A stretch of DNA of 64,000 nucleotides from contig OZ237736.1 in the NCBI GenBank assembly GCA_965178125.1, forward strand, positions 372,001-436,000, in the 5' to 3' direction. The number at the start of each line of letters is the position of its first letter. Position 1 is the first letter of the stretch. Positions 1,965 to 55,311 of the stretch are shown in pieces. The stretch is from Bilabrum cf. latius (lineage: Eukaryota). Under the pieces are notes generated by a model, which was not told the origin of the DNA, did not search any database, and worked only from the letters and a program-made list of their open reading frames with translations. The position numbers were made by a program, and so were the translations under genes.

Positions 1965-4700
1965 CGGCACCGCATTCATGCGCCCAGTTGCAAAGAACGA
2001 CCTGGCCAGAGCCCCAAGGTGGACGAGTTCAGACCTATCTGCTACGCTTCGGTGCTCTCGAAGACAATCAGTCTTGTAGCAAACGCTAAGGTCGTTGAGT
2101 ACTGTGAACAGCATGGACTCTTCGGCCTCGACCAAGCTGGGTTTCGGGTTGGCAAGAACTGCTAGCAAGCTTACTGTACCGTGCTTGAGTGGGTCCGACA
2201 GCGTGGACTAGACGGCGGGGTCCTTATCTTCTTTGATGTGAAGGGTGCTTATGACAGCTGTCAGTGGAATATCATGGAAGCGATCATGAAGGCTCAGGGC
2301 TGGGGAGATCAGGCAACTGGTTTCCTTCTGTCACGACTGAAGGTCTCGGTCCGGATCAGGGACCCAGCAACTGGTAAGACATCCAGGCCAATCCAGAAGG
2401 AGGCTGGGACCCCGCAAGGAGAAGTACTCTCACCGGCGCTCTTCCTCGTCTTCATGGGGGTCCTCCTCGAGGCCATTGCGAGAGAGCGCTCAGATTTGGG
2501 ACACTCTCATGTACTACAACCGTCACCAGGATGTAGAGGTACTCCTTGGGGACAGTGCGGCTATGCAGATGACTATGTAGCGGCAGCAACGACATGGACG
2601 GAGGCCTGTCAGGTGGTCGCGGTCGTCACTGAGCTGTTCGAACTGGCCGGACTTGAGCTTGGATTTCGACCAGTGAGTCCATCAGGGCTCGCGAAGAAGA
2701 CTGCCATGATGCCGTTTGGACTTGCAGCCGACTCCTTTCCCCGTGGGTGGGACGACGATATCGCGTGTACAGCCACGGAAGTGAACCCATCATGGGTAGA
2801 ACAGACATGGACCGTTCCCCGCGCGAAGTCGTATGTGTATCTAGGGTTGCTGATATCGACGACGAGGATCCATGCCACAGCAGCAGAGCTTGGGCCCGGC
2901 TACGAAGAGAGGGACGTGATAGCCATTGACATGGTCCCCCACGTTCGGCGAAGGGTGGCAATGGCGATGCAACAAGCGTCCATCATAACCCGCGCTGCAG
3001 TTGACTGTGATTGGTCGGTTCGTCTACACTCCCAGATTCTCTATTCTGGAGCGCTCACAAGCGCGCTCTATGGCATTGGTGCTGCTGGATGCGCCACTGG
3101 CTGGGAACGCTTCCGAGGTCTGGAACAGCGGATCTCTGTGAACTACGGCGTGATCATGAATGCAGCTGTGCTGAGTGTAGTGGACCGTTTCCTGGCACGC
3201 ATGAGGTGGATGCTGGCCACTGGAATGGCTGACCGTATGCCATTTGCCGTCGAAGGACGTCGCTTGCCGAAAGTGGCGTTGGATTCTGAGGTATGGCTTG
3301 CGAGTGCTGCCGGAAGGACCGCACGGGACCTCTTTGAGCTCATGCGAGCCCCAGATAGGAGGGGTCTACCAGTGGTATCTCACTACATCCGGACTGCATA
3401 CATGTGCCAGTAGATGTCGCAGCAGGGACCTCTTAGTGCTGCGGCGTCTCTCAGGCTTCACCTTCATGACAATGGAGTATCTGTTGACAACGGAGTGACT
3501 TGGCTGGGTGAGAAGGAGCTGAATCGAGCGGTGCGCCGTTGGCACTCGTCGAAGTCTGCTTCTAGCATCAGGTCTTTCAGGAACTTGAGCCCTGGATGCC
3601 ACTCCGGTTACGTCCTGGCGAGCGCAATCAGGCAGCAGAATGCAGAACAGACAGTGTCACTGGACCAGTACCATGGTCAGGTTGATGGGGTGTTCGGCCC
3701 TGGTTCACTGCCTACCACTGCAGCACTGCAACTGCGTGGCTCCGACGGGCGATTGATCCTTCGTGTTCGTGCGGGTATTTACCCTCGTTCCTGTTCCCCT
3801 ACTCCAGAGCTGACTGACAAGGTGGCTGTGGAGATGACTCGCCGAGAGTCATCGCTGCAGTCACGTGGTCTTCAGGCAGAGTGGGTCTCCGGTGACTGGG
3901 CCAGTCGAACTTCAGAGGAGAAGGGCAAGATAAGGAAGGCATGGGCGGACCATGGCCTACGTCTTGAACCTCACCCACAACCTCTGGAGCAGGACAGGCG
4001 TGGAGTCGCTGCTGCTGAGCGAACCATTCCCAAGATGCGCCGAGCAATTGCCCGCTCTAGCGCCTCTGTTGGATTGGTACGGCTTGCGACACTGGTGGTT
4101 GATGAGCTGAGTGTAAAGATCAGAACGTTTCCGTCCTGGACTGCCTGCAGGTGGTGGACTGGGGCCTCGGTGCGAGGCTGGACTGCGAGCTCATCGGATG
4201 ACCTGTATGCTGCAATGCGAGCTCAGGATCGCAGGGGACATCGTGTGGCTCGCCCTAGAGGGCTCATGCACACTCTTGAGAGGATCTGGGCGCGTGAGAT
4301 GGCGACTTCGCTTCGCTGTGTCTTGCGTGAAAGGGAGTAGCTACGTCGTACATGGACGTCCCGCTGGTGGCGGATGGCATGTGTCGACGGTCCGGCTGTC
4401 CTTACGAGGATGGCTCGGGCTCACTCTCCTTCCCTCTGGTCCTTTGGTGGATGAGTGGCTGAGTCTCAGGGTGATCGTCTCGGTATGTGTAGCACCATGA
4501 TGTTTCGGAAATCCTCTTTGGGACGAGGGGTTCTTCTTTCTTTTGCTTTCTTTTGAGGCTTTGGCCTTTGCTCTAGGGGGGGGCTGCGGGTCTTTTGATC
4601 GCGTTGTTCTCTGAGGTCATCTTTGATGGCCCCACCTTGGGGGTGTGACAGCCATTCGTGGTTGCACATTACTTTGTGTGGTTTCTTTACCCTACAAATT
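1965..4700 (+). mobile_element. 5'-truncated non-LTR retrotransposon (LINE-like); boundaries approximate
   Basis: Starts abruptly within the RT N-terminus after an A-run at ~1954-1961. T-rich presumed 3' UTR to ~4700. No endonuclease, ORF1 or TSD recognised. Confidence 0.75.
2013..4454 (+). CDS. Non-LTR-type reverse transcriptase ORF (5'-partial; probable 1-nt frameshift near 1995)
   Basis: Motifs DEFRPI, QAGFR, FFDVKGAYDS, GTPQGEVLSPALF, YADD and YLGL. Single frame with TAG at 2163, 3411 and 4338; first TGA at 4452-4454. Confidence 0.85.
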
Positions 4701-4896: not shown

Positions 4897-7800
4897 ATGC
4901 GGCGAACTGCAACTGCGACCCAGATACCAAGCCAACAGTGGACCTGCACCTGCATCATTGCCTATGCGTTGTTTGTAAGTATGTGTAAGGCGTCATCAGC
5001 CCCTGTGTACAAGGATTAGCCCAGGTGTAGTTCTATAGGGGCATAGTCAACTAGTTGGTGCCGTCATTTGCTTCCGTTGGACGTGCATCTCGAGCCATGG
5101 TTCGATGAACTTCGAGTTCGGGCGCTACTCCCAACGATTAGCCCATTCTAGCAGCTTCTAGCATCCGGCTCTGCATCACCGCAAGGCACATAGTCGAGCC
5201 CCTCTGCCGGCGTCGTGTGGATGGCTGTGGACTTGCAAGGCGATTTCCGCAAGGCGAATTCGGTGTACCTGCCGGGAGCAGTTCCTGCCGACTTTGGCGA
5301 TTGGAATTTGGAAGAAATCACACACTCCTCAACCGCCCGCGCCGACATCATCATCCGCGTCGAGGTGCAAGGCAGCAGCCTGCCGGATTCCCGGCTGGCG
5401 GGCTCGATCATGCTCGCTGACGGCGGAAGCGTCCGGGCGTGGCGAGCAACCTCGAGCTCATCGGCGCCATGGAAAGAAATCACGGGGTACAATCGCCCCG
5501 TGCTGCTGGGCCGGGGGCTTCAACTCGTTGGTGAGGGCTAGGGTGACCAGAGTGAAGGGTCTTCCGTCGTGGTGAGCAGCCGCAACGCCCTTGGCAACAG
5601 CACCCGGCGGGCATTTGACGAAGCTTCAGAGGCGCTCGCGATCCGAGTGGCCATTCCAATGTCTGCTATCCATGAGCTAGACCCGTTCAAGAACTCTGGC
5701 GCCGCGAGTGCCTGGGCGGGTGCACCCGTCGTGACCAATCAGGGCACGGCGGCGCTCGAAGCCATTTAGGACCCAGCGACTGTCTCCTGCTGGTCTGGGG
5801 GCAGATTTAGTCTTACGCAGTGCGCTCTAGCTCGGGCAACAGCCGATAGACTGAAGGAAAACCATGTGTGGGAAAAAGGGTACCGCGCTGGGGTGGAGGC
5901 TGACGACCAGTACGTCTTGGAGATCGGTATGGGAGCGGGCGAAGATGCGACATGTGCGTGGCAGGCATCGGGCACGATGTTCTGCTGGGGAAGCGGCAAT
6001 GGTGGCAGGTTAGCAACCGGTAGTACAGCGAATGTGCGCGTGCCAACCGAGATCCTTGTCGCTGGCAGTGTGATCAGCGCCAGCATCGGATACGAGGACA
6101 GCGACAACAATGTGCATGGGTGCGCTGCATTGCTCGAAGGCAGCGTGCTGTGCTGGGGCTCGAACTCGTTTGGACAACTCGGCCTGGGCGACAAAGACGA
6201 CCGAGAAAGGTTGCTGCCCCAGTCCCTATCCGTCACGCAAGCCACGCAGGTGTGCGCCGGGGCGGGCTTTTCTTGTGCTGTCATTGCCAACAAGGCGCAT
6301 TGCTGGGGCAGCAAAGACGAAGACAGGAGCGGCACGGGTGGCAACGATGCTTTCAGTCCACGCCAAATAGACGGAGGCACGTCTACGAAAGTTGCGTGTG
6401 GTAAAGACTTTGGTTGCGCTATTATCGGCGGTGGTGCCAAGTGCTGGGGTAAAGGAAGCCAGACTGGCGTCGGCGACAGAACGAGTCCATCGAGTGTATC
6501 AGGACTATCAAGTGGAATCGTTGATATTTGCGCAGGGGGGGATCATGCGTGTGCCGTACGATCGAATGGCAGGGTGGTGTGTTGGGGCAGTGGAAGCAAG
6601 GGACAGCTAGGCAGGACACCATCTAGTTCATCGCCAGGCGAGGTCACTGGAATCTCGACCGCAGTTAAAGTAAGCTGTGGGGAGTTCCATACGTGCGTCG
6701 TCTTATCGGACCGTAGTGTTCGGTGCTTTGGAGACAATGGGAATGGTCAGGTAGGCAGCGGGAGCTCAGCTTCGACAGTGGGTTCGCCAGCATTGGTGGT
6801 TGGCCTGCGTTCGGGTGCCCTCGATGTAGAATGCGGCGCACGGCATACTGCAGTCATGCTAGACTCTGGCCAAATTCAAATGTTTGGATATAACGGAGGC
6901 AGCACTGGCATTCTGGCCGTGCCCTCATTATCTGAGTCCAACACAGCGCTGACCCCCTTTGGGCTTGATGACGACATTCAAAGCGGGGCCGCCCGCAAGT
7001 CCGTGGCAGTCAGGGGGCCTGCTGCCGTCGGCAGCGATCACGTGTGCGTGCACTTGGACTTGAATCCTATTGCAGTGCAGTGCTTTGGCTCAAATGATCA
7101 CGGCTAGTTGGGGGCGGGTGATCTCGTGCACGAGATCCAGGCGTGGAGGATGCCACTTGTGCAATACAGGCTGACCCTCACGTCTCCCGTAGCCTAGCTG
7201 GCAAGCGGCGGCGCACATTCGTGCGTGATGTTCTCAGATGGTGATGTGTATTGCCATGGAAGAAACAACGAAGGCTAGCTAGGAATCGGGTCGACCTCCA
7301 ATTTAGGAGTGCCAAGATCCTCAGCAATCTCGCTGCCCGAGCCTGCAGTGGCAGTTGCTGCAGGCGACGCCCACACATGCGTTCTTCTTCTCGATGGCAC
7401 TGTGCGATGTTTCGGTAGCAACGCAAACCAACGCATCGGGCTAGGCACTGGCACTGCCAGGAGCACCTCGCCCAGCTCTCAGCTGTCCATGCCGGGAGGT
7501 CAGGACGCAATTGTCATCGGCACTGGAGCCCTGCACACCTGTGTGGCACTGCACGACACCTCCATATCCTGCTTCGGCAGCAATAGCAAAGGCTAGTTGG
7601 GAGATGGCTCGACGACGTAGCGCGGGGCCGGGAGTGCGAACAAGTGGGATGGGGGCCGCGTGAGACAGATTTGCGCGGGGGACGACTTCACGTGTGCCCT
7701 GGCGAGCGGTGGTCACATGCGATGCTGGGGAGCCAAGGAGCACGTTGGCTCGAATCCGGCTGCAGACATTACCGATGCTAGCCTCGCTGCCAATGTCTCG

Positions 7801-10800
7801 CTAGCTCACGCAGGTTTCAGCTCCAAACAGGTTGCATCGATAGGCTGCGGGGCCAAGCATGCTTGCGCTGTCACTGCCCATGGTTAGCTGCTGTGCTTTG
7901 GCGATAATTCGCAGGGGCAGTTGGGCACCGGAGACTCGACAAACAGGCCGGACTCGAGCACTGTAGCGCCGGTGCCGGTGGACTCTTTGGGATCAAGAGT
8001 TGTGCGGGTCTACTGCGGCGGGGACCGGACATGCGTGCTGCTGCAGAGCGGGGCTTTCAAGTGCTTCGGCAAACAAACGTCTTGGAAGATTGGGCATGCT
8101 TTATCCACATCAAGAACGCCAGACCAGGCAGCCGAGGTCATGTTCGGCCACAAGAAGAAGAGGGAGTGCGCCGGTGGCACGGACTGCATGTCACCGGGCT
8201 CCGCGATGCTGCAGCCCTACACCATCAACTACGATGAGACTGAAAGTTCCGAGGCGATCCTCTCGCGCTCACTCCCCAATCCAAGGACATGGTCTGCCAA
8301 TGGTTACATGTTTCCCGGCGAGGTAGACCCGCTGCTGAACGAGAGGGAGGCAGTCGGTGCCCTGTTGAGCGGGGGCTCGGTTGAGGTGCTGAGTGGAGAT
8401 GTCGTGGTTTTTGCTCCCCCTGAAACTACTCTTGATGCCCCTGCTTTTCTCAACGACACCGCTGTCGTATTTGGTAGTGCTGTCCGGAATTCGATCCTTC
8501 CGGAAGGCGGCTCAACCCTGACCATCGCACGTAATTGGGCGGCAATAGAACAGATGCAGCTGGTAGAATAGGGCAATGTGGATGTAACAGTGAGCGGCAA
8601 GCCTTGCACGAACGTGTAGACGGGAAATTGGAAGAGCATTTAGTGCAAGTCTCCTGCCGGGGACGGTCTCGGTCACGAGGTGCTCGTGTGGATTTCAACG
8701 CGCGCGCCGGGTTTGCTTCCTAGCGTGATGAGGGTTGGCTCCATCGACTACACCATGCCACTTATATCCCAAGTCACTCCAAGTGGTGGCCTGCTCCCGC
8801 GGATTAGCTCTGCTGGCACTGGATCGACGATTCAAATCATTGGCTCTGGTTTTGGCAACCCCGGAGCTTTGGCACAGGCACCAACCGTGCTGATTGGACC
8901 TTTGGAGGTGCTTTGCGACAGCATCGTTCATGTTTCCGACATCTAGTTGAGCTGCAGGATGCCGGCTGTTGCAGGCACCAACTTGCCTTTAGTGGTGAAA
9001 GTGCGCGACTCGTGGAAGAGCCCAGCCGTGAATGTGTCCACCGGAATGGCTCGAATAACTGCAATCGACCCCGCTCAGGTGCTTCCAGCGGCACCAGGAA
9101 CATACACGTACAACTTCACGATCAGCGGCACGGCTTTCAGCAAGGACCTCCTGTCCAGTATATCGGTTGGCGGAGAAGAGTGCCCAATCACCACGGTTGT
9201 GTCAGACAGCGAGATTCGATGCGATAACGTCGAGGCACCCAGGTCATGGCAATCGAACGACGTGGTTGCGACGTATGGTGGCAAGCAATTGAAAGCAAGG
9301 GGTGCGTTAAGAGCCGTAGCAGCTCCCACTGTGACATCGGCCGTGACGACGAGCGGGGTGCCTGTGGCCGGCGGCGTGCAGGTGCGTCTGGTGGGCGACG
9401 GGCTGGGCGTGTCTGCGTCTGACATAGCGTCTGTGACGTGGGCTGGTCGGTCGGTGGCATCGTCGGGGTGGGAGTGGGTGAGCACGCAGGAGGTGCGCGT
9501 GATGGTGCCGGCTCGCGTGGACAAGAGCCCGAGCGGGGACGCGGCTGCAGTGGTGGTGAGCACACGCGGGGGTCTGTCTTCGCCAGCGTACAACGTGTCG
9601 TACGACTCGATCCGTCTGGAGGTGGTGGCGCCAGTGCAGCCGCTTCCGGGGTCGGGTGTGTACGAGGAGATGTTTGAGGTGGGTGGCAGCGGGCTTCGGT
9701 CTGACACGTTGCTGGGCGGGTGGGTGGGCGGGAGTCGTTGCGGGAGCGTGAGCGTGGTTGATTCGTCTGCTTTGGGTCTTGGATCTGTGTCGGGTCCGTA
9801 TGTGCGATGCAGCGGTGTGCGGTCTCCATCGTCTTGGTCTGGTCGTGACGTGGTGCTGTCGTATGGACTGGTGGGGAATGTGACTCTTCGGGACGCGATC
9901 CGTCCGTTGAATGCTCCCACTGTGACATCGGCCGTGACGACGAGCGGGGTGCCTGTGGCCGGCGGGGTGCAGGTGCGTCTGGTGGGCGACGGGCTGGGCG
10001 TGTCTGCGTCTGACATAGCGTCTGTGACGTGGGCTGGTCGGTCGGTGGCATCGTCGGGGTGGGAGTGGGTGAGCACGCAGGAGGTGCGCGTGATGGTGCC
10101 GGCTCGCGTGGACAAGAGCCCGAGCGGGGACGCGGCTGCAGTGGTGGTGAGCACGCGCGGGGGTCTGTCTTCGCCAGCGTACAACGTGTCGTACGACTCG
10201 ATCCGTCTGGAGGTGGTGGCGCCAGTGCAGCCGCTTCCGGGGTCGGGTGTGTACGAGGAGACGTTTGAGGTGGGCGGCAGCGGGCTTCGGTCTGACACGT
10301 TGCTGGGCGGGTGGGTGGGCGGGAGTCGTTGCGGGAGCGTGAGCGTGGTTGATTCGTCTGCTTTGGGTCTTGGATCTGTGTCGGGTCCGTATGTGCGATG
10401 CAGCGGTGTGCGGTCTCCATCGTCTTGGTCTGGTCGTGACGTGGTGCTGTCGTATGGACTGGTGGGGAACGTGACTCTGCGGGACGCGATCCGTCCGTTG
10501 AATGCTCCCACTGTGACATCGGCCGTGACGACGAGCGGGGTGCCTGTGGCCGGCGGGGTGCAGGTGCGTCTGGTGGGCGACGGGCTGGGCGTGTCTGCGT
10601 CTGACATAGCATCTGTGACGTGGGCTGGTCGGTCGGTGGCATCGTCGGGGTGGGAGTGGGTGAGCACGCAGGAGGTGCGCGTGATGGTGCCGGCTCGCGT
10701 GGACAAGAGCCCGAGCGGGGACACGGCTGCAGTGGTGGTGAGCACGCGCGGGGGTCTGTCTTCGCCAGCGTACAACGTGTCGTACGACTCGATCCGTCTG

Positions 10801-13800
10801 GAGGTGGTGGCGCCAGTGCAGCCGCTTCCGGGGTCGGGTGTGTACGAGGAGATGTTTGAGGTGGGTGGCAGCGGGCTTCGGTCTGACACGTTGCTGGGCG
10901 GGTGGGTGGGCGGGAGTCGTTGCGGGAGCGTGAGCGTGGTTGATTCGTCTGCTTTGGGTCTTGGATCTGTGTCGGGTCCGTATGTGCGGTGCAGCGGTGT
11001 GCGGTCTCCATCGTCTTGGTCTGGTCGTGACGTGGTGCTGTCGTATGGACTGGTGGGGAACGTGACTCTGCGGGACGCGATCCGTCCGTTGAATGCTCCC
11101 ACTGTGACATCGGCCGTGACGACGAGCGGGGTGCCTGTGGCCGGCGGGGTGCAGGTGCGTCTGGTGGGCGACGGGCTGGGCGTGTCTGCGTCTGACATAG
11201 CATCTGTGACGTGGGCTGGTCGGTCGGTGGCATCGTCGGGGTGGGAGTGGGTGAGCACGCAGGAGGTGCGCGTGATGGTGCCGGCTCGCGTGGACAAGAG
11301 CCCGAGCGGGGACGCGGCTGCAGTGGTGGTGAGCACGCGCGGGGGTCTGTCTTCGCCAGCGTACAACGTGTCGTACGACTCGATCCGTCTGGAGGTGGTG
11401 GCGCCAGTGCAGCCGCTTCCGGGGTCGGGTGTGTACGAGGAGACGTTTGAGGTGGGTGGCAGCGGGCTTCGGTCTGACACGTTGCTGGGCGGGTGGGTGG
11501 GCGGGAGTCGTTGCGGGAGCGTGAGCGTGGTTGATTCGTCTGCTTTGGGTCTTGGATCTGTGTCGGGTCCGTATGTGCGGTGCAGCGGTGTGCGGTCTCC
11601 ATCGTCTTGGTCTGGTCGTGACGTGGTGCTGTCGTATGGACTGGTGGGGAATGTGACTCTTCGGGACGCGATCAGACCCATGAGCAGACCTACGATCTCG
11701 TCGGTAGTGTCTGCGACGTTCCCAGCGAAAGGAGGAGTTATCATTCGAATTATTGGAGATGGCTTCGGACAGTCTGCGTCTGACATTGCGGCAGTGTCAG
11801 TGGATGGCGTAGAAACTGCCTCCTGGAGCTGGATCAATACTGCAGAGGTGAATACAGTGCTTCCAGCGAGTTCAAGAAGGACTGCAGTCCTTGCAGTGCA
11901 AACCAGAACCGGTCTGTCAGCGACGTTCGAGCTGAGATATGACCTACCATCGGTTGCCAGCACTCAACCGGGCTACATCTTGTTTGGTCAAGCTGTTTCG
12001 AATGCAAACCCTATTCTCGTATGCGGAGACAACCATGCTCCAGTGGAGCAGGATGCAGAGGTATTCGGTGGAGCTAGAGTCACTGTGACAATCGCTGGTA
12101 GAGAGTGCCAGCGATCTGTGCCTGTAAACAGTAGCTGCTCTCAGTGCGTCGAGCTGCGGCAGGAGCTTGCCGATTGGTCGAAACCGCGTGTAGTACAGGT
12201 TGACATCGAAGATCGAGAGTCACCAGAGGTCAAAGTCATTGAGACGTACGGAGCGCCGCAGCTCCTTGGACTTGAGTTTGATTCATTTGGAGTCAATCAG
12301 GACGTTGTTATGTTTGCAAACAATTTAGGTGAGCAGCCAAGCGACGTGTTGGGCATCGTGCTGCAAACGGTTGAGGAGGCAACTGGCGACTCACTTCCCG
12401 TGGACGCTCAGGATGTCGTCCGGCTGAGCGACATTGTTGGTGATGCTTCCTTCGATGAGCCCAGTTTCTTTGCTGGTGCTGTGACTTCCATGCAAGGTGG
12501 CAAAGTGGAGCTCTACGGCGGTGTGCAGCTGGGCGAAGGCACGGTGTCTTTCGCGGTGCCAGAGGGACTGTACTTGTTAAACGCCAGCTAGCGCCACGCT
12601 TCGGAATAGATAAATGGCCCGTCACCGGTGGGGTATCTCCGAATATGCACCCGGGCACTCGTTTGTACGCCTGCTCGGACAGTGGCAGCTGCAACGGCTC
12701 TCACCGAGCCACCTGTTCTTGTACCATGGCAGGTGATTGCCAGGCGGCCAATCGGGGACCCGACGCAGGTTGAAGTTGTTTGGACGTATCCGTCCCCGGA
12801 CGATGAAGCCAGGCTGCTTGCATCTTTTGGTTCTTTGAGCCAGCATGCACCTGCGACCGAGTTTCAATTGGTGGTGTCGCCTGTGAAGGGGACGTAGAGT
12901 GCTCAATCGACTCCACTCGACGCCGGGGGCGAAGAGCAGGTATTCACTGTGCAGGCGCGCAGGGCACTGCTGGGCACTGCGCCGATTGGTGAGGGTGCGA
13001 GGAGGCTGCAGCAGTCCTTAATCAATGGCACCGACGACTTGGACCTGTCACTCGACATGCTCGCTGGCACAGGCTCGTACAGAGTATCGGGCACTATATC
13101 TGCGGTAAAGGCAGGTGACATTGTGAACGGTTCAGCTCCGTCTAGCGTGGCCATTTATCGTCATGTTGTCACCACGAGGCACGTCCAGCCGGTTGTGGTC
13201 GCTGTGGGTGCGCAGGACAGCACTTCCGGCAAGGCTGCGCCAGTCGCCCGAGTAGACAACGAGGTCCGTGCCTCTTGCACTGCAGATCAATTCTTCGCGT
13301 CAAAAGAGGTCAACGCAACCGAGAGGGTGTGCAGGAGCTGCCCATCCACGGTTGCACCGTGCGGCGGCTTGGAAGCAGACGAAGTGCTTGCCGTGCCCGG
13401 CATGTGGCGGGTGCCGTGGAGCAGGCAGCAGTACCTCCCCTTCGCGAGGTGTCCTAGACCTGAGCTCTGCAGGGGTGTCGAGCAGCAGGCGGTGCAAGTG
13501 CTGGGTAGGCCGCAAGTGCCACAGGCAGAGGAAGACGCTATCGGAGTTGACGCGCTGCAGTCCATGTTCGATGCCGTTGTTGACACTTCGGGTCCTCTGA
13601 ACCTGTCGTTGGTGTCGACTGAGAGAGAGCTTGAAGGCTGCGCTGGCGACCACGCCGGTGTGCTGTGCCTGTCATGCGTCAGGGGCAAGTTTTTAAGCGC
13701 TGGGGGGGACTGCAGGGAGTGTGATCCTGGCAAGGCCGCCGGCCAGGTGATCGGAGCAGCGATCCTGGCCATGATGCTGACTGCGTGCATGTTCCTGCTG

Positions 13801-16002
13801 TCGCACCGGGACGCCATGAGCTTTTCAAGGGACTCCGAGGCCTTCCGATCGAAGGACTCCTCGGCGATGGGAATCTTGAGGGTGGTGCTGGGGCACGTGC
13901 AGGTGATTTCCATCTCCAGTGCGATCCGGCTGGAGTGGCCCACCGGGTTCGTAAGGCTGCACGGGTTCTCCAATGCAGGCACCACTGGGGGAGTAGACCT
14001 GGTCTCTCCTGACTGCGCACTGACCGGCAACGTGGATAGGGATGCTAACCTGGAGACTGGCATCGACCTTGGGGACAGCCCGGTCTTCAGTCGGGTCATA
14101 CTGGCCGCGTTGCTTCCTCTGTGTCTCCTCGGATGGGCGGCGCTAGCGTGCTACTTTGCGCCACCGCAGCTCTTGGACATTGCTGGGGGTGCAGTGAAGC
14201 TGACGAGCGCACCAAAATCGGACGCCACCGCTCTGCAATCGTAGGTAAAGTCGCTGCGAGCCAGCCAACGAAACCTCTTGTCTGGAATCAACCCACTGTC
14301 GCGAAAACCTGGGCTGCTTGCGGATGGGAGCACTGGCAGCAAGTTACCAGTTGCAGCGAAAAGCCAAAGCGAACTCGCTGCCAACCAGACCCACACGGCC
14401 AATCCCGTCGCTAGCTTGCTGCAATCCTCGAGCTCAAGCTCCAGGTCGCAGCAAAGCGGTGCCTCTGGATAGGCGGTAGCAGGACCGGATTTTTCGTTCG
14501 CGAGCAAGGTTCGAACGGGCGGCAGAACCCCATCTGAAGCCGCTGCAGCCGTCAAGCCCAAGGTCAAGGCCCGCGATCGCCTGTTTCTCGGCAACACGGC
14601 CACTTTCCTGCCAAGGCTTAAGGACAGGGTCATACTATGCGTTACGGTGATCGCAACGGTGCTGCACGCGTTCGTAACATCCCAGGCGATGAAGCTGCTG
14701 ACCTGCTAGCCGGTCGGTCCTGACGTCATAGAAGAGGCTTCGGCAGCAGCAAGCTAGGCTGATGGGAATGAAACCGCAGTCACATCAGACGCCGACAACA
14801 GTGGGTACAGCGCGTTTTAGCTCCGGCTCGTGGGCGACCTCGACGTAAACTGCGAAGCAACCGCGGGCCAGCGATTCGGGCTCGCCATCCCTGTCCTGCT
14901 GATCCTATCGCTGGGCGTGCCAGCTCTGCTCGGGTCGGTGGTGTGCTACCGCCGTGGCCAGTCTCCCACTACCAAGTACCAGATGAGCTACCTGGTTGCA
15001 AACTACGCAGGGCATGCGCAGTACTGGGAGGCCGTTGCGATGGTGAGGAAAGGGTCGCTGGCGGTTCTAACCGCGCTGCTGGAGCCAGTCGGGGTTGCAA
15101 TGCAGGTGAGTGTGACACTGTTGATAGTTGTTCTCAACCTGCTGGCAGTGACAGCACTGGCACCGCTTCGGACCTAGCTGGAGAACAGGTTAGAACAGGC
15201 ATCGGGCGGCGTCTTGGTGTTCACGTTTATCATCCTCTTGGCTCTTCCTGATGATTTCGCCGTGTCAAGCGCTGCTCAGGAGGCAGCATTCGAGCAGCTC
15301 GGCGGGCAAGATAGACTGCGTGAGAGAACGGGTGAGTGGGCGCTCGCCATCAACGCGCTGTTCTTTGCGGCTGCTGGGCTCGCCCTGATATACGTCTCGC
15401 TGCCTGGCAAGTGGAAGCTGTATCTGCAGTCCTGTGCCGGTGGGCCCTTGTGCGCTGCATTGCTCCCGTGCTTTGCTCTAGGCAGAGATCATGATGACCA
15501 TCTAGGCATTGCCAAGGGTGGAATTTCGGGCTGGAGCGCAAGTGGCAGCCGCAACGGGCGGCACGCCGCGGCCAAGCTGGCTAGGAGGGTCAGCAGCCAG
15601 CCGCAGCTGCACCTACCAGGGCCAGCTGCAGACGTCGATTAGAAGTCAAGCGTGGGCCCCCCGCGCGCTGGTCTTGCCAGTGCAAAGGGTCTACCCGGTG
15701 CCAGAAGTGCTGGAGCCAAGCAGCCTAGCCTCAAGCCAGCGGGGCGGCGAGACCTGGATTTGAGCTAGCTGGGATCCACGGGGACCGGTGGAAGTTCTCC
15801 TCGGTCTGGCCCAGGCATGCCCGACGAGCCCTCGCGGGAAGTGGACAGCACTTCGGCTGGCCGGTCGAGCAGACCAGCGCAGGGGCCGAAGCGGGTGCGG
15901 GCTCCCCACAGGCAAGCCAAGAGCGCGGGCGCAAGGCGCTTGCCGCCAGGCAAACGACCGGATCGGCCAAAGCCTGGGAAGCTGGCGCCAGAAGAGGTGT
16001 AA
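4897..16002 (+). CDS. ~3,700-aa receptor-like protein: signal peptide, RCC1/BLIP-II repeats, IPT/TIG repeats, Cys-rich region, multi-pass (~7) TM C-terminus
   Basis: Track ORFs 5215, 5569, 5866, 7309, 7660, 7921, 8680, 8947, 12628, 12949, 14278, 14830, 15214 and 15817 all lie in one frame. They are separated only by TAG (27 counted); the first TAA is at 16000. Motifs CWGSNSFGQLG, HTC, PTVTS..GG..V.L.G and YWEAVAMVRK. The start ATG is inferred. Confidence 0.85.
9322..11673 (+). repeat. 591-bp tandem repeat, ~4 near-identical units (197 aa each, about two IPT/TIG-like domains)
   Basis: Unit starts at 9322, 9913, 10504 and 11095. Only scattered substitutions (gag atg/gag acg, gac gcg/gac acg). 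Confidence 0.97.
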
Positions 16003-20328: not shown

Positions 20329-23300
20329 TCAGGCCTATTCCATGTCTTCCATGCTTCCAAACGAAGCGCCAGTCGACACCTTCACGATGAGAGGCACGGA
20401 CAGCCGAACCGACCCTCCCAGCAAGGCCTTGCCCCCTCTCACCTGAGAAGGGACTGAAACTGCCCTCAGGCCGGCCCCAATTCCACTAGTCTCACCTCTA
20501 TCACCAGATGATCCTGAGGGAGATCCCCTTCCGGCCCCAGGGAGTGCCCCCAGAGGAGGCACCGCCTGTCGACCGACTGACCCTGCACCGCCGAGAACCG
20601 AGTCGTCCGTCGAAGCGAGACTCAGCGCCCCACCCGATCCCGAATCCCCAGAACCCCCCACGCCCACCCCACGCCAAGGCGAATGCTCCAGGCACCCAAG
20701 GCCAGGCCGCTCCGCTAGCCCGCATCGCACCAAGGGGCCGACAGCCACCTGGCCCATGGCAGGTCTGCACAGGCCGGCCATCGCAGCCGGTACTAGCTTC
20801 GACATGCACCGCGTCAGGTACGCTGCCACTCGAGCCCTGCTCTCCGCATCGCCGGGGCACTCCAGCACCAGCTCATCGTGCACCTGCAGCAGCACCTGCG
20901 ACCGGGCCAGCGCCTCCATTGTTCCCTGGTCCACCCCGCCAAGAAGGAACCCGTCGATGGGCTGTCTCCTCCCAGTGCCAATGCCCCCATCTAGCCCCCC
21001 CAAGCTGGAACCGAGGGGTGCCCCCAGCACGCGCTCCGCCGCCGCATCCAGCGCCCGCTCCACCAGGATCATGGCCACTTTGATCAAGTCTGCTGCACTC
21101 CCCTGGATCACCGTGTTGACCGCCCTCCTCTCTGCCTCTGCCCTCAGTCCCCTGTCGCTCGACGCGCTCGTGTTTGCGAGGTACCTCCGCCGGTTGGCCA
21201 GCGTGATCACGAAACCGTGAGCCCTCGCAAACTGCCTGGCAGACTCCATGAACCTCTGGATCCCGGGAAAGTGCTTGAACAGGCGCTTCCTCACGTCCCT
21301 GACCGCAGCTGCGGACGTGCCCAGCTTCCTAGCGGCGTCCTCCACACCATTGCCGTAGATCATCCCGAGCGTGACCGTCTTGGCCATGCCTCGCTCAGCG
21401 GCCGTCACGTCGTTGGCGTGCTTGCCGAAGACCATGCCCGCCACGGCTGCGTAGATGTCAGTCCCTCGGCTCGCGATGCCTGCCTGGCTGAGCGATGGCA
21501 TGCCTATGCCAGTGCTGCCCTGGCTGGCACCAGGCGAGGGCGCGCTTTCAAACAGCCGTAGGAGGTTCCTGTCTTGCGCCACGTGGGCCAGGATCCGCAT
21601 TTCAATCTGCCCGTAATCCGCTGCGAGCAGCGCACGGTCGGGGCCGCTGGCGACCAGCGCTGCACGGAACGATCCGAGCTGCTCCACCCCGTCATCTTCC
21701 TGCTCATCTCCATCCCCATCGGTTGCTTGAGCGGCAGATTGCTGCCCTAGACCGGCACTTGCCCCGCCTGCCGCGTATCTCTGCACCGCGGTGCTTTGCT
21801 TAGGGAGATTCTGCAGGTTTGGGTTGCGGCTGGACAGCCGCCCAGTGCCGGTGCACACCTGTGGCATTTGCGCGTGCAGTGTGTGGAGGCCGGGGTGGAT
21901 GCTAGCGGCAGCATTGGTCCAGTAAGTTTGTGTGCCTACCGGGTGTACAGACCCGATCGAAGCCGCAGCATTGGTCCTGCTACTGCTACTGCTACTGCTA
22001 CTGCTACTGCTACTGCTACTGCTACTGCTACTGCTGCTGCTGCTGCTGCTGCTGCTTGACGCTGATGGTGCCGGTGGCGATGCAGCTGTACCCTGTGGCG
22101 CCCTCTGCTGGCGAGCAGGCAGTAGGACCCGATCGGCAGGCTTGACGGCCTTGCCTCCAAATTGCATGAACGTGTTGATCGACTTGGTGACCTTGCGCCA
22201 GCGCAGGATGATGCCCGGCAGGGGGTGCTGCGACTGCAGCTGCTGCAGCACTTCTTCCCTGGTCGAGCGATGTATCTTGGTCTTTGGACCGCTCTCCTTC
22301 CTCGCCCGCTGCCTCTCGTCATGATGAAGTCCCAGCTCATCGAACAGAATGCCCGCCACGTCCTTGTTGCTGGACACCTAGAACGACCGTCCCAGGCACC
22401 TGTGAGCGTCCTGCTCCAGCTGCTTCTGCCTCTTGCTGAGGTGCTTGTCGTACGCATCAGTGATGGCAGGCAGGAAGGGGACACCGGCGGCTTCAACGCG
22501 AGCCAGCAACGGTGTTAGTGCCATCTCTTGGAAGTAATACACGCCCAGCTGTCCCCGCATGGCGAGCTGTCGTTCCAGGAGGCAGTAGAGATGAGCTGTC
22601 CGGCAGAGGGTGCCCCACAGAGACTGCTTGGACTGCGGCTGCGCTGCGCCGCTGCTGGCAGCGGGACTATGATGCAGGTCCAAGGGGAGGTAGAATGACT
22701 CGGGGCAGGGGCTAGCTTGAGCCATTTGCCATAGGACTGACGCAGGAAGTCCCTGCACGGCCGGGGTCCTGACAGCTGCGGTGACCTTTGTCACTTCCTG
22801 CACAGCTTTCACGACGGCATCCGTGTGAACAGTGTACGCGGCGGTGGTGACATCTGCAATGCACTGCACTGCACTGGCAGCGGCAGGGATCACCTGCATG
22901 AGTGCGTGTAGGTTCGTGGCCCCGCTGTTGCACACCTTTGGCACGCCCGGGATCTGCAGAATCCGCGCCAGCACGGCCCACCTCCACCGAGCTGGGACCG
23001 CCGCGGCCGGATTCACAGATGCAGAGCGCTGGAGCGCACCAGCCTTGCTGTTGTCCCCACGTAGACAAGAACATACCCAATCGTCGAGTACTTGTGCCGC
23101 CGCGGCATCACCGACAAGCGTGCCTGCACCTTGCTTGGACTGCTCTGAACTGCAGTCGAAGTCGGGCTGCATGGGAAGGAGGAAGAACCTGGCGTGCCTG
23201 ATCCATTGAATGACAGCATGCGCCTTGTCATTGGCAGTGTGCTACCAATCGCGGGGCATCGCGGCGATTGCGACGTGGGTCACCCCGTCAGGGGAGGTGG

Positions 23301-24741
23301 GACGGCCGAGCACGCGGAACACGAGCATCGAGCAGGTGCCCAAGCAGCGCAGCGTCTCCTGCAACGAAACCGATCCCTTCTAGCCTGGAGCTAGAACCAC
23401 ATCAAGCGGGTTAACACCATCGGCACTAGTGCCGCTGCCCTCGTCTGCATCGTTGGCACATGCCCGGCTCCAAGAAGACAGGTCAATTAGTTCGAAGCGA
23501 TCGTGGACAGCTGTGCTCGCCCTCGTCTGCTTCACTGCCTGTGCCCATCCGCTCGCTGCAAATCCGGCAGTTGGAGGCGTGTGAATGCGTCTCTAAAGCT
23601 GCTATAGTTCCTTTGGCGGCGGTGCAGACGCGCTGGGGGATGTCCCGCCGAGTCGCCTAGCGCCTGCTCGCCCAAGCGAAGAGGCTCTTGCTCGCTTTTT
23701 CGGCCTGGTGACCTCACCCGGCGCGCTCGTTGCCTGCGTAGTCGAAGCGCCAGCTATTTCCTATTCAATGAAGGAAGCGTAACTCGAATTTCTCCGAGAG
23801 CGAGAACTCTCCTCGTGGGCTCCTTGCGCTTGGCTGCTGCTAGTAGTATTCGACTGGTGCACCGCCGATCGCTGGACTCGCTTGCGACCAGCCAGGCGCC
23901 GGTCGCTGTTGGTGATTTTAACAACCTCGGACGGAACCAGCTATCCGTTAGCTTGCTCTTCCATTGGGTGACTGGCGTTCAGACCTCTTTGATTGGAAGG
24001 CTGTGGCAGCAGCTTCAGCCTTGACTGCTTTGCACTCGCTGCGGCTCTCCTCCCAGCCGACCCTGCATCTCCGTGTACATCGCCAGATTCCATCGCTTGT
24101 GCGGCTAGCGCGTGTTCTCTTCGAAATCTAGAGGCAAGGTCTGCCCCGCCTGGTGCAGAGCTGGTCACCAGCTCAGCTTGAGCAAGTGCTCGACTGCTCC
24201 TTCCGCCATCCTGCTTTGAGCTCAACAATTTCCGCATCGCGTCTGACGATGAGTCGTTAACTGTACTTGGATTGCCGGGGTGTACATTCGAGCCTGCACC
24301 TGTCGCATCACCGATCTTTCGCAGCTGCCATATTGCTCCGACGTTGCTCAGTCTACTTTCTGCGGACGGCAAGCCTTCTTGGCGACCATCCCGCTAATTA
24401 CTTGACTCAATTCGTCCTCTTGAATTCATTGCAGATTCAATATTCGCCGCAACTGGCGCCTTGGCCTCTAGTCTTTGCGAGCTTGGATAGGCACTGAGCC
24501 TTGGACCTGCAACTTGCTCCATGGTAGCCGCCATCGCATTAGGCTACGAAAACCAGTGTTCACGAGGAACTTTAGACCTGTCCTCTGGCTCCGTTTCGTA
24601 GGGAATTGGCGGCTCAACAGGTCTGAATTGGTCTTGCGAAAGGATTACTTCAAGGGCGAACGGGTCAGACTGCTGCACTCGCTCGTACTCGTGCCGAGCA
24701 AGCGGGCGAAGCTGTGGGTCTCTCAACAATACGTACTCCAT
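20329..24741 (-). CDS. A-family DNA polymerase (Pol nu/theta-like polymerase domain, no helicase), ~1,470 aa
   Basis: Motifs TGRLSSRNPNLQNLPK, ADYGQIEMRILAH (A), RGMAKTVTLGMIYG (B), AERRAVNTVIQGSAADL and QVHDELV (C). ORFs 24544, 23941, 22378 and 20335 share a frame joined by TAG. Ends GAA TAG GCC TGA. Confidence 0.88.
21977..22056. repeat. (CTGCTA)n/(CTG)n microsatellite encoding poly-Ser in the polymerase
   Basis: Seen directly in the sequence. Confidence 0.95.
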
Positions 24742-28765: not shown

Positions 28766-30193
28766 ATGCGAGCTGCTCTAGCTGCTCTAGCAGCAATGAT
28801 GGTAACGCGTGGAGCTGTCGGCGAGAAGCTCTTCACTTCCCAGCCCCCTAAATGGGAGCCGCAGTACCTCATGGAGAAGAGCACGATATTCATGCCCTGT
28901 AATGAAAGTGGCTACTTTGATCCCGAATTCGCCGCTGAATTCGGCGTTGCTGATTTCGACTGGTCTAATGCAAAACAGCTTTGGGCGAACGACAGGCCGA
29001 TGCGATGCGAGGAGCGCCTTGTTGAGCAGGCCAAGATGGTGAAGCAAAGGGACAACTCCACCAGAGTATTTGTGTACCGCAATTTTGTGAAGGCCCTGCC
29101 ATGGTACACAAGTGTGCGGGAGAAGATCACCGATCCTGCGTACTCCGGCTGGTTCCTGGAATTCAAAGACTACAAGGGTCCGTCGAGCAACCACTCCTAC
29201 CACGTGCCCGCGTGCACGTACGAGAAGTGCAGCGGCTTCTATCATGACCAGGTAAGTCCCGCTGCTCGCACCATTCAGTATTCGCGTATCTGCCCCAACT
29301 GCCAGCATCGCGCGCCCAGCCTTCTGCTCTTATAATGACCATGCACGCAGGACCAGACCCCTCAGTACCCGCACGGCGACGGATCATGTGATCAGGAGTG
29401 CGACTGCGGCGAGAACCTGCCCTGCGGCGAGTACCTCTGGGATCACCGGAACGACACGCTCCGCGAGTGGCTCATCAACGACTTCGCCCTGGGGGCCACG
29501 GGGCTGGGCAGCCCCTACGTCGACGGCTTCTACTTCGACGACGGCTGGACGAACAAGCCCCAGAAGAGGGCCCCGTGGTGGCCCAAGGAAGGCTTCTGCT
29601 CTGGAGACCCCTTCGGAGGACCGACCGAGGAGTACCCCAACTGCACGGCAGACATGGGACTGTCGCAGCAGGACGTCGAGGACATCTACCAGGGATGGCA
29701 GGCCACAATGACGGCTACTTTCCAGGCCGTCATCGACCACGGGGGCCTGCCCTGGCCCTACCTGGCCGAGAACACGGTAGCGTCACCAAGCCAGGCTGGC
29801 GACAGCTGCAACGCAGCGATGAAGAAGTACTGCGAGCCCACCGGTTCGCCCCCGGCCGTGCCTGCCCTGTTCGAGTACACCAAGTCTAGTAGCGGTCACG
29901 TGTCCCCGCTGCCGCAAGCAGACGTGGACATCGCCTACTTTTTGCTCTCCAGGGGTCCCTACAGCTGGCTGGGTTACGCGTGGGAGGGATGCACCAACAA
30001 CGAGCAGCCCGGCGCGAGCGGGTACGAGTACGCGATCCCAGCCGGCGTCAAGCGCGATTACGGCACGCCCAACGGCCCGTGCGTGGAGCAATCACCAAAC
30101 TCTGGGGTGTGGGTCCGCGACTGGAGCAAGGCCACGGTGCAGCTTGACTGCAACACGCTCACGCCCACCATTACCATGAAGGACACAGCTTGA
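28766..30193 (+). CDS. Secreted protein, putative glycoside hydrolase (GHL15-like); intron 29252-29350
   Basis: Signal peptide; motifs RVFVYRN, YLWDHRN, VDGFYFDD and GVWVRDWSKATVQLDCN. GTAAGT...CGCAG intron keeps the frame. The family call is from recall only. Confidence 0.65.
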
Positions 30194-37101: not shown

Positions 37102-40100
37102 TCAAAGTTCCTCCGAAAGAGGCTCCTCCCCCTCTCCCTCTCCGCCCTTCTTCTCCTCCTCCTCCTCATCCTCGCTGTCATCGGCCTTCTTTCCGCCCTC
37201 CTGACTGGGTTCCTCTGCCCCGCTGCCGTCCTCTTCGCCTACCTTGCCATCCTCGCCCTCGACCTGAGCCGCCTCGGCATCATCGCCCCCCGCAGCATGA
37301 GCATTCCCGTCCTTCTCTACCTTCTCATCCTCGGTGGGTGCGCCAGCGCTCTCCCCCTCGCCAGCGGTAGAGTTGGTTCCGTTCGTGGCCGCGTCGTCGG
37401 CCTCCGGTGCGGGTGTCGGGGTCGGCTTGGGTGCCTTGTGCGTGCGCATTACGGCCCTCGTGGCGGCGACCACCTCGGCTCTCAGCTGCTTGGCGGTGAA
37501 GGCCGGCTCCTCGTGGGCCTCCTTGTCCTCCTGCTCGGCCACCTTCTTCTCGATCCAGCTGGACAGCTCCGAGACAGCCTTGCTGGCCACCTCCGTGGCC
37601 ACCTCGGTGATCCAGGGCTTCTCCTCCTGCCAGCTGCCCACGATGCCCCGGAGTTTCTCGGCGGATTCCTTGGCGTCCGCGAGTGCCTTAGGTCTGGCCT
37701 GCTTCTCGGCGTGGCGAGACCAAGCGGCGCCAGCAATGGCTCTGATCCCGCCCGCGCGCGTGTTGTACTCCCCAGCCTCTGTCTGCCCCACGTCCTCGCC
37801 GTCCTCATCCAGCCAGTCGCGCGCAGCCTCCAGCAGCTCGCTGAGGGCCTCCCGCTGCTCCTCGCTCGTCACACTCTCGAAGTCCTCGGCGCGGTCGATG
37901 GTCTGCTCCCTGGTGGAGTAGATGAGTCCCTCCAGCGTGTTCTTGGCGCGCTGCCGCTCGCGCCTGTCGGCGTCGGCGCGCGCGAGGCGGAGGAGTCGGG
38001 CTCGCGCGAGCTCCAGTGACTTGCCTTGGAGCGGCTAGACGTCGAGTGCCGAGAGGTCCTCCGAGACTCGCAGGGGCCTGCGGACCACGCGCTTCTTGGG
38101 CTCTGGCGTCGGGGTGGGCGTGGACTCTGCGGCGTCACCGTCATCTTCTTTCTCTTCCCCCTCACCGTCAGCCTTCTTCTCTTCGTCGCCCTCCTGCTTC
38201 TTGCCGTCCTCTTCCTCAGCGTCCGTTTTGCCCTCTTCCTTCTTCTCTTCGTCTTCCTTCTCTGATTTCTTCTCCTCCTCGTCGTTTGCCTCGCCATCCT
38301 TACCCTCCGAGTCCTCTGTCTTGTCTTCGGTGCCATCCTCTTTCGAATCCGCCGAGGGGGAGGGGGAGGGGCTGGGGCTGGGGTAGTAGATTTCCTCCCA
38401 CTGCGCCTCTGCTCGAGACAGGCGGACGATGCCGTTGTGGTTGAGCTTGAAGTGCAGCGTGACCTTGGGCGTACCCAGGTGGCTCAGCTCGCCCTCGACC
38501 AGGTCCCTCACGCCAGTCACGTTGTACCTGCCGATCACGCGGTTTGTTCCCTCGGGCAGGCGTGCCGCGGGGTCGTAGTAGAGCGTGGTGACAAGGTCCT
38601 CGTCGTGCTGGAAGGAAATGCGCTTGGCCTTGCCCAGAGGAGCGTACTTTTTGTAGAGCGAGGCACGGCGCTGCCACGGCTTCTTGGGCCCGTCTTCTGC
38701 TTCGGCCTATTCATCCTCCTCCTTCTTCTCCGCCGCTGCCTCGTCTTCCCCTTCCTCTGCCACTTGTTCCCTGGGAATCTCCAGCACCCTGGCACCGATC
38801 CCGAATGGGGTGCCATCCACCATGCCCACGTGCCTGACCTTGAAGGCCGTGGAGATGTTCGCTGCCATGAAGGCAGAGCCCAGCGCCATGGCTTCGTCGC
38901 CGTTCAGGCGCACGCCCAGCGTCCGCTTGCCGCCCTCCTTGGTCGCAAGGACGGAGCGGAGCCGCTCCTGCACCGCGGGCACCCTCACACCGCCACCGAG
39001 CACCTCCACGTCATCGATGTCGTCGATCGTGTAGTTGCCCTCTGCCAGCACGCTAGCCATCAGCGCGTCGATCCGGTTCAGGATGGGCTGCACCCTGGCG
39101 ATGAAAGGGCCCCTCGAGACGTGGTGCCTGAAATCCACCGACGGAGTGAGTGACTCGATCGTCACGGGGATCTCCTCGTTGGCGCTGAGGATCTCGACCA
39201 CTTTGCCCGCCTTCTTACGGATCTTCTGCATGGGCCTGAGGTAGTCTCGGATGTCCTTCGACTCGCCCTCCAGCGACTTGCCGTGCTTCTCGTTGAAGGC
39301 ATCCGCGAGGAGCTCCGCCATCGCGTTGTCCAGCTCCGAGCTGCTCAGAGCCTCGTCCCAGGCCTTGGCGGTCACGCGCCCCAGGCTCGCATCCTTGCCG
39401 AGCTTCTTGTAGCTGGAGAACTCCACGACCTGTGCCTCGGTGGAACCTGCACCCACGTTCACGAACAGGACCGTCCGGGTCTCGTTCTTGAACACGCGGT
39501 CGATGGAGAACTGCACGGCGGCCGCCGTGTTTTCGTCCGCGAGCGCGAGCACCTTCAGGTCTGCGAGGTCTGCGGCGCGGAGCAGCGCCTTGCGCTCCGA
39601 TTGCGTGTAAAAGGAAGGAATGGTCATTACCACGTCTCGGATGCGGCCATCCGCGTGCGTCTCGCTAAAGTCCTTCAAGTGGCCCAGGTATTGTGCCACA
39701 AGCTCTTCCGCAGAGAAGGTCTCCTCCTCCTCCGGGTTGGTGTCCCTATGCTTCGGCAGCACCAAGCTGGCTGCTCCACGCTCAGGATCGTTGACGGCTT
39801 TCACCGTCACAATGCGCTCAAGCGCACGCTGAGCGCGAGGGTGCGACACGTTGACGCCAAGCAGCTCCGTACCGCCCACCAGCACAAACTGCGGCTTTCT
39901 TGTTAGCATACCGTCTGCATCGCCAGCAAACATCCTCTCCCCCTTGTAAAATGCAACTGCGCTGCGGGTCTTTCGCTTGCTCTGCACGTTGTGCAGGATT
40001 TCGAACGGAGTGCCAGGCTTCACCAACGCGACTTTGGAGAACTCGCTCCCAAAGTCGATGCCAAGGACCATGGCACTAACCTACGGAGCCTGCAGCTAAA

Positions 40101-40158
40101 GCATGGCACCAAAAAGGGCCACACCTGCTGCAGCCACTGCTGCCATTCCAGTTCGCAT
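37102..40158 (-). CDS. HYOU1: ER Hsp70-like chaperone Grp170/HYOU1
   Basis: Signal peptide containing TAG at 40096 and 40081. Motifs VLGIDFGSE, QSKRKT and LNGDEAMALG. Further TAG at 38707 and 38035. Ends in the ER-retrieval-like SEEL followed by TGA. Confidence 0.92.
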
Positions 40159-43200: not shown

Positions 43201-43433
43201 TGCGGGTGCTTCCCCTGGGGTCCTTCCCCGATGTGGGGTCACACGGTACCAAGCAGCACGGAGTGACAGTGGGAGGGTTTTCGTACGACCCGTTGACGGG
43301 GCGGGTGGGCCTCGTCAGCTGCATCGACAACCTGCTCAAGGGGGCCGCCACGCAGGCCGTACAGAACCTCAACCTGGCCCTCTACGGGAGGTAGGGCGAG
43401 TTTGCTGGGGGATTTCGGGGCCTTTTCTTTTGA
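40293..43433 (+). CDS. ARG5,6: Bifunctional acetylglutamate kinase / N-acetyl-gamma-glutamyl-phosphate reductase (Arg5,6-type) with mitochondrial-like presequence
   Basis: Kinase motifs LVKAGG, VIVHGGGPQ and NVNADVAA. Reductase motifs VALIGARGFTG, SNPGCYATG, GVSGYSGAG and IDNLLKGAATQA. TAG at 42201, 42399 and 43392; TGA at 43431-43433. Confidence 0.9.
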
Positions 43434-43997
43434 TCGTGACCCGACGCATGTGTGCCTCTTCTCGAAGTTTAAAGCACCTGAAAGCTGCCGACTACCCGTG
43501 TCGGTCCCCGTAGCTAACCCTTGCTTCCCGCCGTCCACCCCCCTCACCAGCTGAGCTTGAAATGACCCAATCATTGAGTTGCGATTGTCTTCACTTGATC
43601 ATTTGAAGTCGTCGAAGAAGTCGTTTCAAACCACGCTACCATTACAGATCGGGAGTTGATTCTGTAGGTGTCGGCAGATTGCCAATCTCATCGGCACAAT
43701 GGCCGGTCGCTTCGGCGATTCAATCAATGCTAAATCGAGCGGCGCCAGCATGTCATCACACGCTCTGCAGGGTATATACAATACCCGCTTAAACGAGGCT
43801 CTTATATCGAGAACATAGCAATGTAAGTTATCATGGTACTTGATCCGAAAGTCATCAGATACTACTAGCAGTAGGAAAAGAGTACTTATTAAGCTGCTAC
43901 AGTTTCGACCCCCTCGTGCTGCGATCATAACCGTCTTCGTGCACCACGCAGAGGCCTACGATAATAATTGAATAGATTCAGGTTGATTGTCGGCATA

Positions 43998-55229: not shown

Positions 55230-55238
55230 AAAAGAAAA
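55230..55238 (-). terminator. RNA polymerase III terminator (TTTTCTTTT)
   Basis: T-runs immediately 3' of the tRNA. Confidence 0.75.
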
Positions 55239-55311
55239 TATCAGTGGTGGGCTTCGATCCCACTACCTCTCGCGTGTGAAGCGAGCGCTCTACCAACTGA
55301 GCTACACTGAC
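55239..55311 (-). tRNA. tRNA-Val(CAC)
   Basis: 73-nt cloverleaf. Acceptor stem GTCAGTG/CACTGAT, anticodon arm CTCGC-TTCACAC-GCGAG, T-arm GTGGG-ATCGAAG-CCCAC. Confidence 0.95.

Follow-up and report, generated by a model that had tools for sequence, protein, structure and literature searches.

The 64-kb window analyzed here (the whole stretch of DNA under study, 64,000 nt of contig OZ237736.1 from Bilabrum cf. latius) raises the question of whether UAG and UAA, two codons that usually change meaning together, have come to carry different meanings in one nuclear genome. The question is posed most clearly by a frame of 3,702 codons at 4897..16002 (+), which encodes a large protein with RCC1 repeats and IPT/TIG domains, contains 27 TAG codons and runs to a terminal TAA at 16000. 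We consider it likely that this is nuclear DNA of a eukaryote rich in GC and poor in introns, with stramenopile affinity, in which UAG is a sense codon, most likely for glutamine (Gln), and UAA and UGA are terminators.

In-frame use of TAG, TAA and TGA

The initial annotation had singled out the RCC1/TIG frame, and our recount agrees with it: 27 TAG, no TGA and no TAA stand before position 16000, alongside 35 CAA and 85 CAG codons. Its product of 3,701 codons matches the Pfam families WD40_RLD (RCC1-like domain, 7.9e-98), RCC1 (9.1e-64) and TIG (5.3e-37), and because of these domains the frame can be taken as a real gene and not an accidental opening. The C-terminal part of the protein is transmembrane. 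Within the gene, at 9322..11685 (+), a 591-nt unit encoding a 197-amino-acid (aa) repeat occurs four times in tandem with ~99% identity; recent expansion, assembly collapse or duplication are possible explanations for repeats so alike.

Codons were counted in a confident set of 20 exon or gene segments backed by Pfam or by strong GC content at third codon positions (GC3), which comprises 14,187 codons, and in a larger set of 17,235 codons that adds six probable open reading frames (ORFs; G14, G15, G22, G2, G4 and G10). Four of the six (G14, G15, G22 and G2) are each open in a single frame only, over 356 to 726 codons. For the confident set, the counts in frame and in the two other frames were:

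TAG: 69 in frame; 98 and 93 out of frame
TAA: 1 in frame; 37 and 42 out of frame
TGA: 0 in frame; 257 and 250 out of frame

The 69 in-frame TAG codons are spread over most of the Pfam-supported genes. In the larger set, TAG occurs 95 times in frame, TAA once and TGA never, with 47 and 55 TAA and 303 and 327 TGA out of frame, and the ratio of internal TAA to TAG within the window is 1:69 in the confident and 1:95 in the larger set. TAG is nearly unconstrained in frame, and TAA is kept out about as strictly as TGA. These counts refute the idea that the TAG-bearing frames are pseudogenes or noncoding DNA, in view of the zero in-frame TGA in 17,235 codons against the hundreds out of frame; many of these frames also carry strong Pfam domains, and we give an artefact of this kind practically no credence.

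Long ORFs respond to the choice of stops as well. Under the three standard stops, 28 ORFs in the window reach 300 codons or more, with a coverage of 41.6 kb. When TAG is freed, the figures rise to 41 ORFs and 81.7 kb, a doubling of long-ORF coverage, whereas freeing TAA instead brings almost no gain (30 ORFs, 44.4 kb).

One alternative is the ordinary code of NCBI table 6, in which UAA and UAG both encode Gln and UGA is the sole stop, with TAA merely rare through GC-richness. Codon bias elsewhere speaks against it. The confident set has a CAA:CAG ratio of 111:426 (CAA share 0.207), and a slightly smaller set has GAA:GAG of 200:544 and AAA:AAG of 91:367, compared with 1:69 for TAA:TAG. From the CAA share, 14.5 TAA codons would be expected in the confident set where one was seen (binomial P=1.8e-6), and 22.9 in the larger set, again against one (P=1.3e-10).

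The residue read at UAG

In the large gene, the motif [FWH]G-x(4-5)-G/Q-X-[LVI]-G (G-Q-L-G type) occurs eight times within the RCC1 repeats. Four of the eight have Gln (CAA or CAG) at position X, three have TAG and one has Arg (CGC). The three TAG codons at this Gln position are:

7105..7107 (+), TAG in RCC1 motif, aa 737
7276..7278 (+), TAG in RCC1 motif, aa 794
7594..7596 (+), TAG in RCC1 motif, aa 900

On this pattern, Gln is the most likely residue for UAG, well supported though short of proof; if so assigned, TAG makes up 12% of the Gln codons.

Some observations count against this assignment. Conservation allows TAG to be read in the RCC1 motif only, and the Gln meaning rests on three sites there. 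Two of the motif TAGs face Arg and Asn in pairwise alignments with UVR8; the UVR8 repeats opposite them depart from the consensus themselves, and the alignments are neutral. The alignable TAG sites of an Arg5,6-type gene (two of three) fall in variable columns and those of a Grp170 gene (four of four) in variable or gapped columns, and neither discriminates between residues. A sense UAG that specifies another residue while UAA and UGA remain stops (known or conceivable candidates being Leu, Ser, Glu, Tyr and Lys) would be compatible with the preponderance of variable columns and with the Arg and Asn opposite the motif TAGs, and nuclear codes with UAG as Leu and as Ser are described in PMC11687900. 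We nevertheless find this reading quite improbable: the motif position that carries TAG three times is Gln in four of its five other instances within the same protein, and TAG is a single transition away from CAG, the commonest Gln codon here.

Gene ends and termination codons

The genes and codons that bear most directly on termination are the following:

37102..40158 (-), Grp170/HYOU1-like Hsp70 (Pfam HSP70, 3.2e-60)
37102..37104 (-), TGA stop of Grp170, directly after a C-terminal SEEL (endoplasmic reticulum retention)
40293..43433 (+), fused Arg5,6-type gene (Pfam)
43431..43433 (+), TGA stop of the Arg5,6-type gene
16000..16002 (+), TAA, putative stop of the RCC1/TIG gene
about 49819..51798 and about 52069..55002 (+), WDR75 exons (Pfam WDR75 propellers)
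55003..55005 (+), TAA, putative stop of WDR75, followed by AT-rich sequence
about 59086..59632 (-), LSm2, three exons
59086..59088 (-), TAA, putative stop of LSm2
48756..48758 (+), TAA end of the probable ORF 46713..48758

TGA is the true end of 11 confident genes, namely those for the family-A DNA polymerase, adenylate kinase, DUF445 protein, GHL15-like protein, 30337 kinase, CaMK-like kinase, Grp170, Arg5,6, the ORF ending at 57479, LYAR and the WD40 protein, and of four probable ones. TAA is the probable end of three confident genes (RCC1/TIG, WDR75 and LSm2) and one probable gene (48756). By this count, TGA closes 11 and TAA three of the 14 confident genes. The initial annotation had correctly named TAA as the first non-TAG stop of the RCC1/TIG gene (16000), WDR75 (55003), LSm2 (59086) and the ORF at 46713. 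Its figure of 13 ORFs ending in TGA requires revision, because GTGAG splice donors create in-frame TGA at exon ends and ORF ends in TGA overcount true stops. On the plus strand, such donors account for the TGA that closes adenylate kinase exon 1 (25701) and for the one that closes DUF445 exon 1 (27302), and that at 51853 lies inside the WDR75 intron; none of the three is a gene end. A TAA-TGA pair at 29333..29338 likewise lies inside an intron, that of the GHL15 gene.

Two conserved C-termini show UGA to be a real stop. The SEEL at the end of Grp170 is followed at once by TGA, and its homologues have -EL or -DL at the end in 91 of the 95 listed (120 aligned); the C-terminus of Arg5,6 lies no more than a few residues from where its homologues end. 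Past the latter, 43431..43439 (+) reads TGA-TCG-TGA, with a second in-frame TGA one codon beyond the stop. TGA codons soon after the Arg5,6, WDR75 and LSm2 stops may hint at back-up stops, in a number of cases too small for more.

The TAA ends differ in how much they tell. Across the RCC1/TIG TAA, GC content falls from 0.71 in the 150 nt upstream to 0.56 in the 150 nt downstream, like the drop after TGA stops. The next in-frame TGA is 281 codons away, at 16843, and the codon score of this extension is -0.11 per codon, to be compared with an in-frame mean of +0.15 (5th percentile -0.04) and off-frame means of -0.26 and -0.23. For WDR75 and LSm2, the next in-frame TGA follows five and six codons past the TAA, so these two ends are not decisive alone. 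None of the three confident TAA ends has a splice donor fitting GT[AG]AG, the form found at seven of seven donors in the window; at the RCC1/TIG end, GTGTAA was rejected as a donor because all seven have A at +4 and G at +5 and it has neither. Over the 681 codons of the probable ORF 46713..48758, with ten in-frame TAG and no Pfam family, each of the other five frames is interrupted by TGA or TAA; the ORF has an atypical composition (GC3 0.49) and a low codon score.

For the table-6 code, the two TAA ends with TGA five to six codons later are favorable, and an internal TAA at 56541 would be directly explained. If all five TAA are taken as sense, however, two of them fall within the last six codons before TGA (P=4e-4). 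Such clustering of supposed sense codons, the 281 codons of noncoding-like sequence that the RCC1/TIG gene would gain and the TAA:TAG ratio together make this code very unlikely.

Our preferred reading, with UAG as Gln and both UAA and UGA as stops, has to be weighed against several points beyond those on the residue. The sample is one 64-kb window with about 25 genes, in which neither a tRNA-Gln(CUA) nor an eRF1 gene is present. Only three confident genes end in TAA, and none of the three has a conserved C-terminus, as the initial annotation had cautioned. Termination exactly at TAA is inferred from shifts in composition and coding potential, and past the RCC1/TIG TAA the drop in coding potential is modest, the last two windows scored within the gene being weak already (0.056 and 0.002). 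A further such point is the internal TAA.

The internal TAA at 56541

The earlier claim of a single internal TAA across the window holds, with exactly one in a coding-looking frame:

55878..57479 (+), orphan ORF, no Pfam family
56541..56543 (+), single in-frame TAA in coding-looking sequence, within this ORF

The codon lies in continuous high-GC3 sequence, with values of 0.94 and 0.92 for the 150 nt on its 5' and 3' sides, respectively. An in-frame ATG follows only after 40 codons, of which 38, read by eye, end in G or C. An intron spanning the site was rejected, for lack of room and given the high GC3 up to and from the codon and the properties of introns in this window, which are ~100 nt or longer with GT[AG]AG donors. 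The ORF itself is multi-pass membrane-like, lineage-specific and very high in GC3, and has no TAG. The residue aligned with this TAA is unreadable, since no Pfam family was found for the product and neither a word-based search nor a full HMMER search of 1.84 billion representatives detected a homologue. Exact-pattern scans around the codon gave no match in metagenome, genome or viral contigs. The simplest accounts of this TAA in a lineage-specific gene are a nonsense allele, an erroneous base call or a site of local readthrough; it is no evidence of a general sense meaning for TAA.

A more far-reaching interpretation is that UAA has a dual role, normally stopping translation and at times being decoded or read through inside genes, with the TAA at 56541 translated and the lineage in transition toward reassignment of both UAR codons. 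The ORF keeps its high GC3 on both sides of the codon and shows no other lesion, and UAA is a minor terminator here, for which reason a wider meaning would come at a lower cost than in the UAG-only lineages already published, in which it ends 86.9 to 98.3% of genes. This is one case in 17,235 codons, however, and the gene set in which it sits is the one that avoids codons ending in A most strongly, so that a rare sense TAA would be expected there least of all. The base at +4 is A. A purine at this position favors termination. If a sense or ambiguous TAA were tolerated, moreover, it should be far commoner, CAA being 21% of CAR codons. On balance, we hold a dual UAA to be unlikely. The stronger proposal of a lineage standing between UAG-only and full UAR reassignment, in which UAA ends a minority of genes and already undergoes decoding or readthrough at rare sites within genes (56541, for example), appears rather improbable, even though the predominance of TGA at gene ends in a GC-rich genome would lower the cost of losing UAA as a stop. 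Were it true, the organism would represent an extant intermediate in the stepwise process that gives UAG and UAA a common meaning.

Source lineage and known codes

All organism-named Grp170 homologues are from stramenopiles (oomycetes, ochrophytes and Cafeteria), as is the sole named Arg5,6 match. The named stramenopile matches include Nannochloropsis, Tribonema, Pseudopedinella, Paraphysomonas and Cafeteria, with three lineages checked in the taxonomy, and the best identities are only 44 to 47%. Judged from these best hits alone, the source is probably a stramenopile. A Grp170-based search for related loci in metagenome contigs was governed by peptide patterns of low complexity and returned only distant loci (39% and 22% identity). 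No nuclear stop-codon reassignment in stramenopiles was found in the full-text literature, supplements and subscription journals being outside the reach of that search, and the present case is possibly the first code with UAG as Gln and UAA as stop in this group.

The code of table 6 occurs in many ciliates, hexamitin diplomonads, ulvophytes, Streblomastix and Amoeboaphelidium. It shares with the present case the direction of change from stop to Gln and UGA as terminator, but needs frequent in-frame UAA, which is seen here once in 17,235 codons. Ambiguous codes such as those of Condylostoma and Blastocrithidia likewise have terminators frequently in frame, unlike this window with its zero TGA and single TAA. 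For Blastocrithidia nonstop, PMC12152300 and PMC12153298 describe UAA as both Glu and stop, a precedent for UAA terminating at gene ends while being decodable internally, which would provide the model for the internal TAA here. In that organism, reassignment extends to all three stops and in-frame stops are abundant, whereas TGA never and TAA only once occurs in frame here.

Closer parallels come from lineages in which UAG alone has changed. In Iotanema spirale (Panek et al. 2017), UAG encodes Gln, with ~8% of Gln codons, and UAA and UGA are stops, as set out in PMC5304391. UAG alone has gone to Gln in both cases, as a minor Gln codon (~8% there, ~12% here), and UAA is kept as terminator. Iotanema, however, is an anaerobic fornicate unrelated to the stramenopile-like lineage here, its predominant stop is UAA where TGA ends 11 of our 14 confident genes, and its case rests on a transcriptome where ours rests on genomic DNA. 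Protocruzia tuzeti and two phyllopharyngean ciliate lineages also have UAG as Gln and UAA as stop, the latter ending 86.9 to 98.3% of genes according to PMC11687900. They share with our case the change of UAG alone to Gln; they are UAA-dominated ciliates, in contrast to a GC-rich, non-ciliate and TGA-dominated genome.

NCBI table 15 (TAG as Gln, TAA and TGA as stops) corresponds to the pattern in this window. The initial annotation had proposed a table-15-like code, and the proposal is supported by the in-frame TAG, TAA and TGA counts of 69, one and zero, by the RCC1 motif and by TAA at three gene ends. Table 15 is here a label and not a lineage; its attribution to Blepharisma was an error, as stated in PMC5304391. 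The same annotation treated the decoupling of UAG from UAA as unexpected. It is indeed rare, but no longer a surprise: the literature has included UAG-only reassignments since 2017 (PMC5304391; PMC11687900), and with Iotanema, Protocruzia and the phyllopharyngeans published, decoupling itself is already known.

Predicted decoding mechanism

The proposed mechanism would need two components. The first would be a tRNA-Gln with anticodon CUA, derived from tRNA-Gln(CUG), that pairs with UAG and not with UAA. The second would be an eRF1 with weakened recognition of UAG only, which still recognizes UAA and UGA. UGA would then serve as the main terminator and UAA as the minor one. Both components have parallels in the literature, in which a CUA anticodon alone reads UAG yet ignores UAA, a UUA anticodon would read both, and a UAG-only change demands that eRF1 lose UAG recognition and keep that of UAA and UGA (PMC5304391; PMC11687900). 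For the eRF1 of Iotanema, a T32G change is reported in PMC5304391.

Other features of the window

Overall GC content of the window is ~0.59, and GC3 ranges from 0.64 to 0.84 in the better genes. Introns are few, yet present. Ten sequencing runs contain this DNA in whole or in part, and none of those listed is recorded as RNA. Gene identities were assigned by Pfam scans, and besides the genes given above the window contains several further long ORFs without a Pfam family and the following features:

Histidine kinase fragment (Pfam)
2274..4454 (+), reverse-transcriptase remnant in a 726-codon ORF (RVT_1, E=1.8e-5, below the Pfam cut-off)
20329..24741 (-), family-A DNA polymerase (Pfam)
Adenylate kinase with a CaMKII-AD-like domain (Pfam)
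DUF445 protein (Pfam)
GHL15-like protein (Pfam)
Two protein kinases, the 30337 kinase and the CaMK-like kinase (Pfam)
55238..55312 (-), tRNA-Val(CAC), between WDR75 and the orphan ORF
LYAR (Pfam)
WD40 protein (Pfam)

The tRNA-Val(CAC) gene is the sole tRNA and the sole Rfam match in the window. The RVT_1 ORF, with flat codon-position GC, probably represents a retroelement in decay. Within the family-A DNA polymerase there is a run of ~30 serines, and its N-terminal part of 900 residues has no Pfam family. In LSm2, an intron apparently begins right after the ATG (~59630..59632, -; ATG then GTGAGT), and exon 1 would consist of the start codon alone.

Three long ORFs on the plus strand, at 44298..46106, 46713..48758 and 62930..64000, are open in one frame only and belong to no family. 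Their GC3 profiles are flat or inverted, and their in-frame TAG codons (six, ten and four, respectively) are as dense as those out of frame; they may encode fast-evolving disordered proteins. The second contains a perfect hexanucleotide array at 47718..48025, 51 copies of GCTGGT, that encodes a long Ala-Gly run.

Implications

Few codes give UAG and UAA different meanings, and those that do illustrate how eRF1 and a tRNA with a CUA anticodon can separate codons that usually change together. The window would add an independent origin of the UAG-only reassignment, in a lineage with stramenopile affinity. For this organism, genomic DNA exists, so that the tRNA-Gln(CUA) and the eRF1 changes, only predicted for Iotanema, could be read from it directly. 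Neither the standard code nor table 6 will yield correct gene calls on this genome. Finally, TGA as the main terminator bears on the published argument that heavy use of UAA locks that codon in as a stop.

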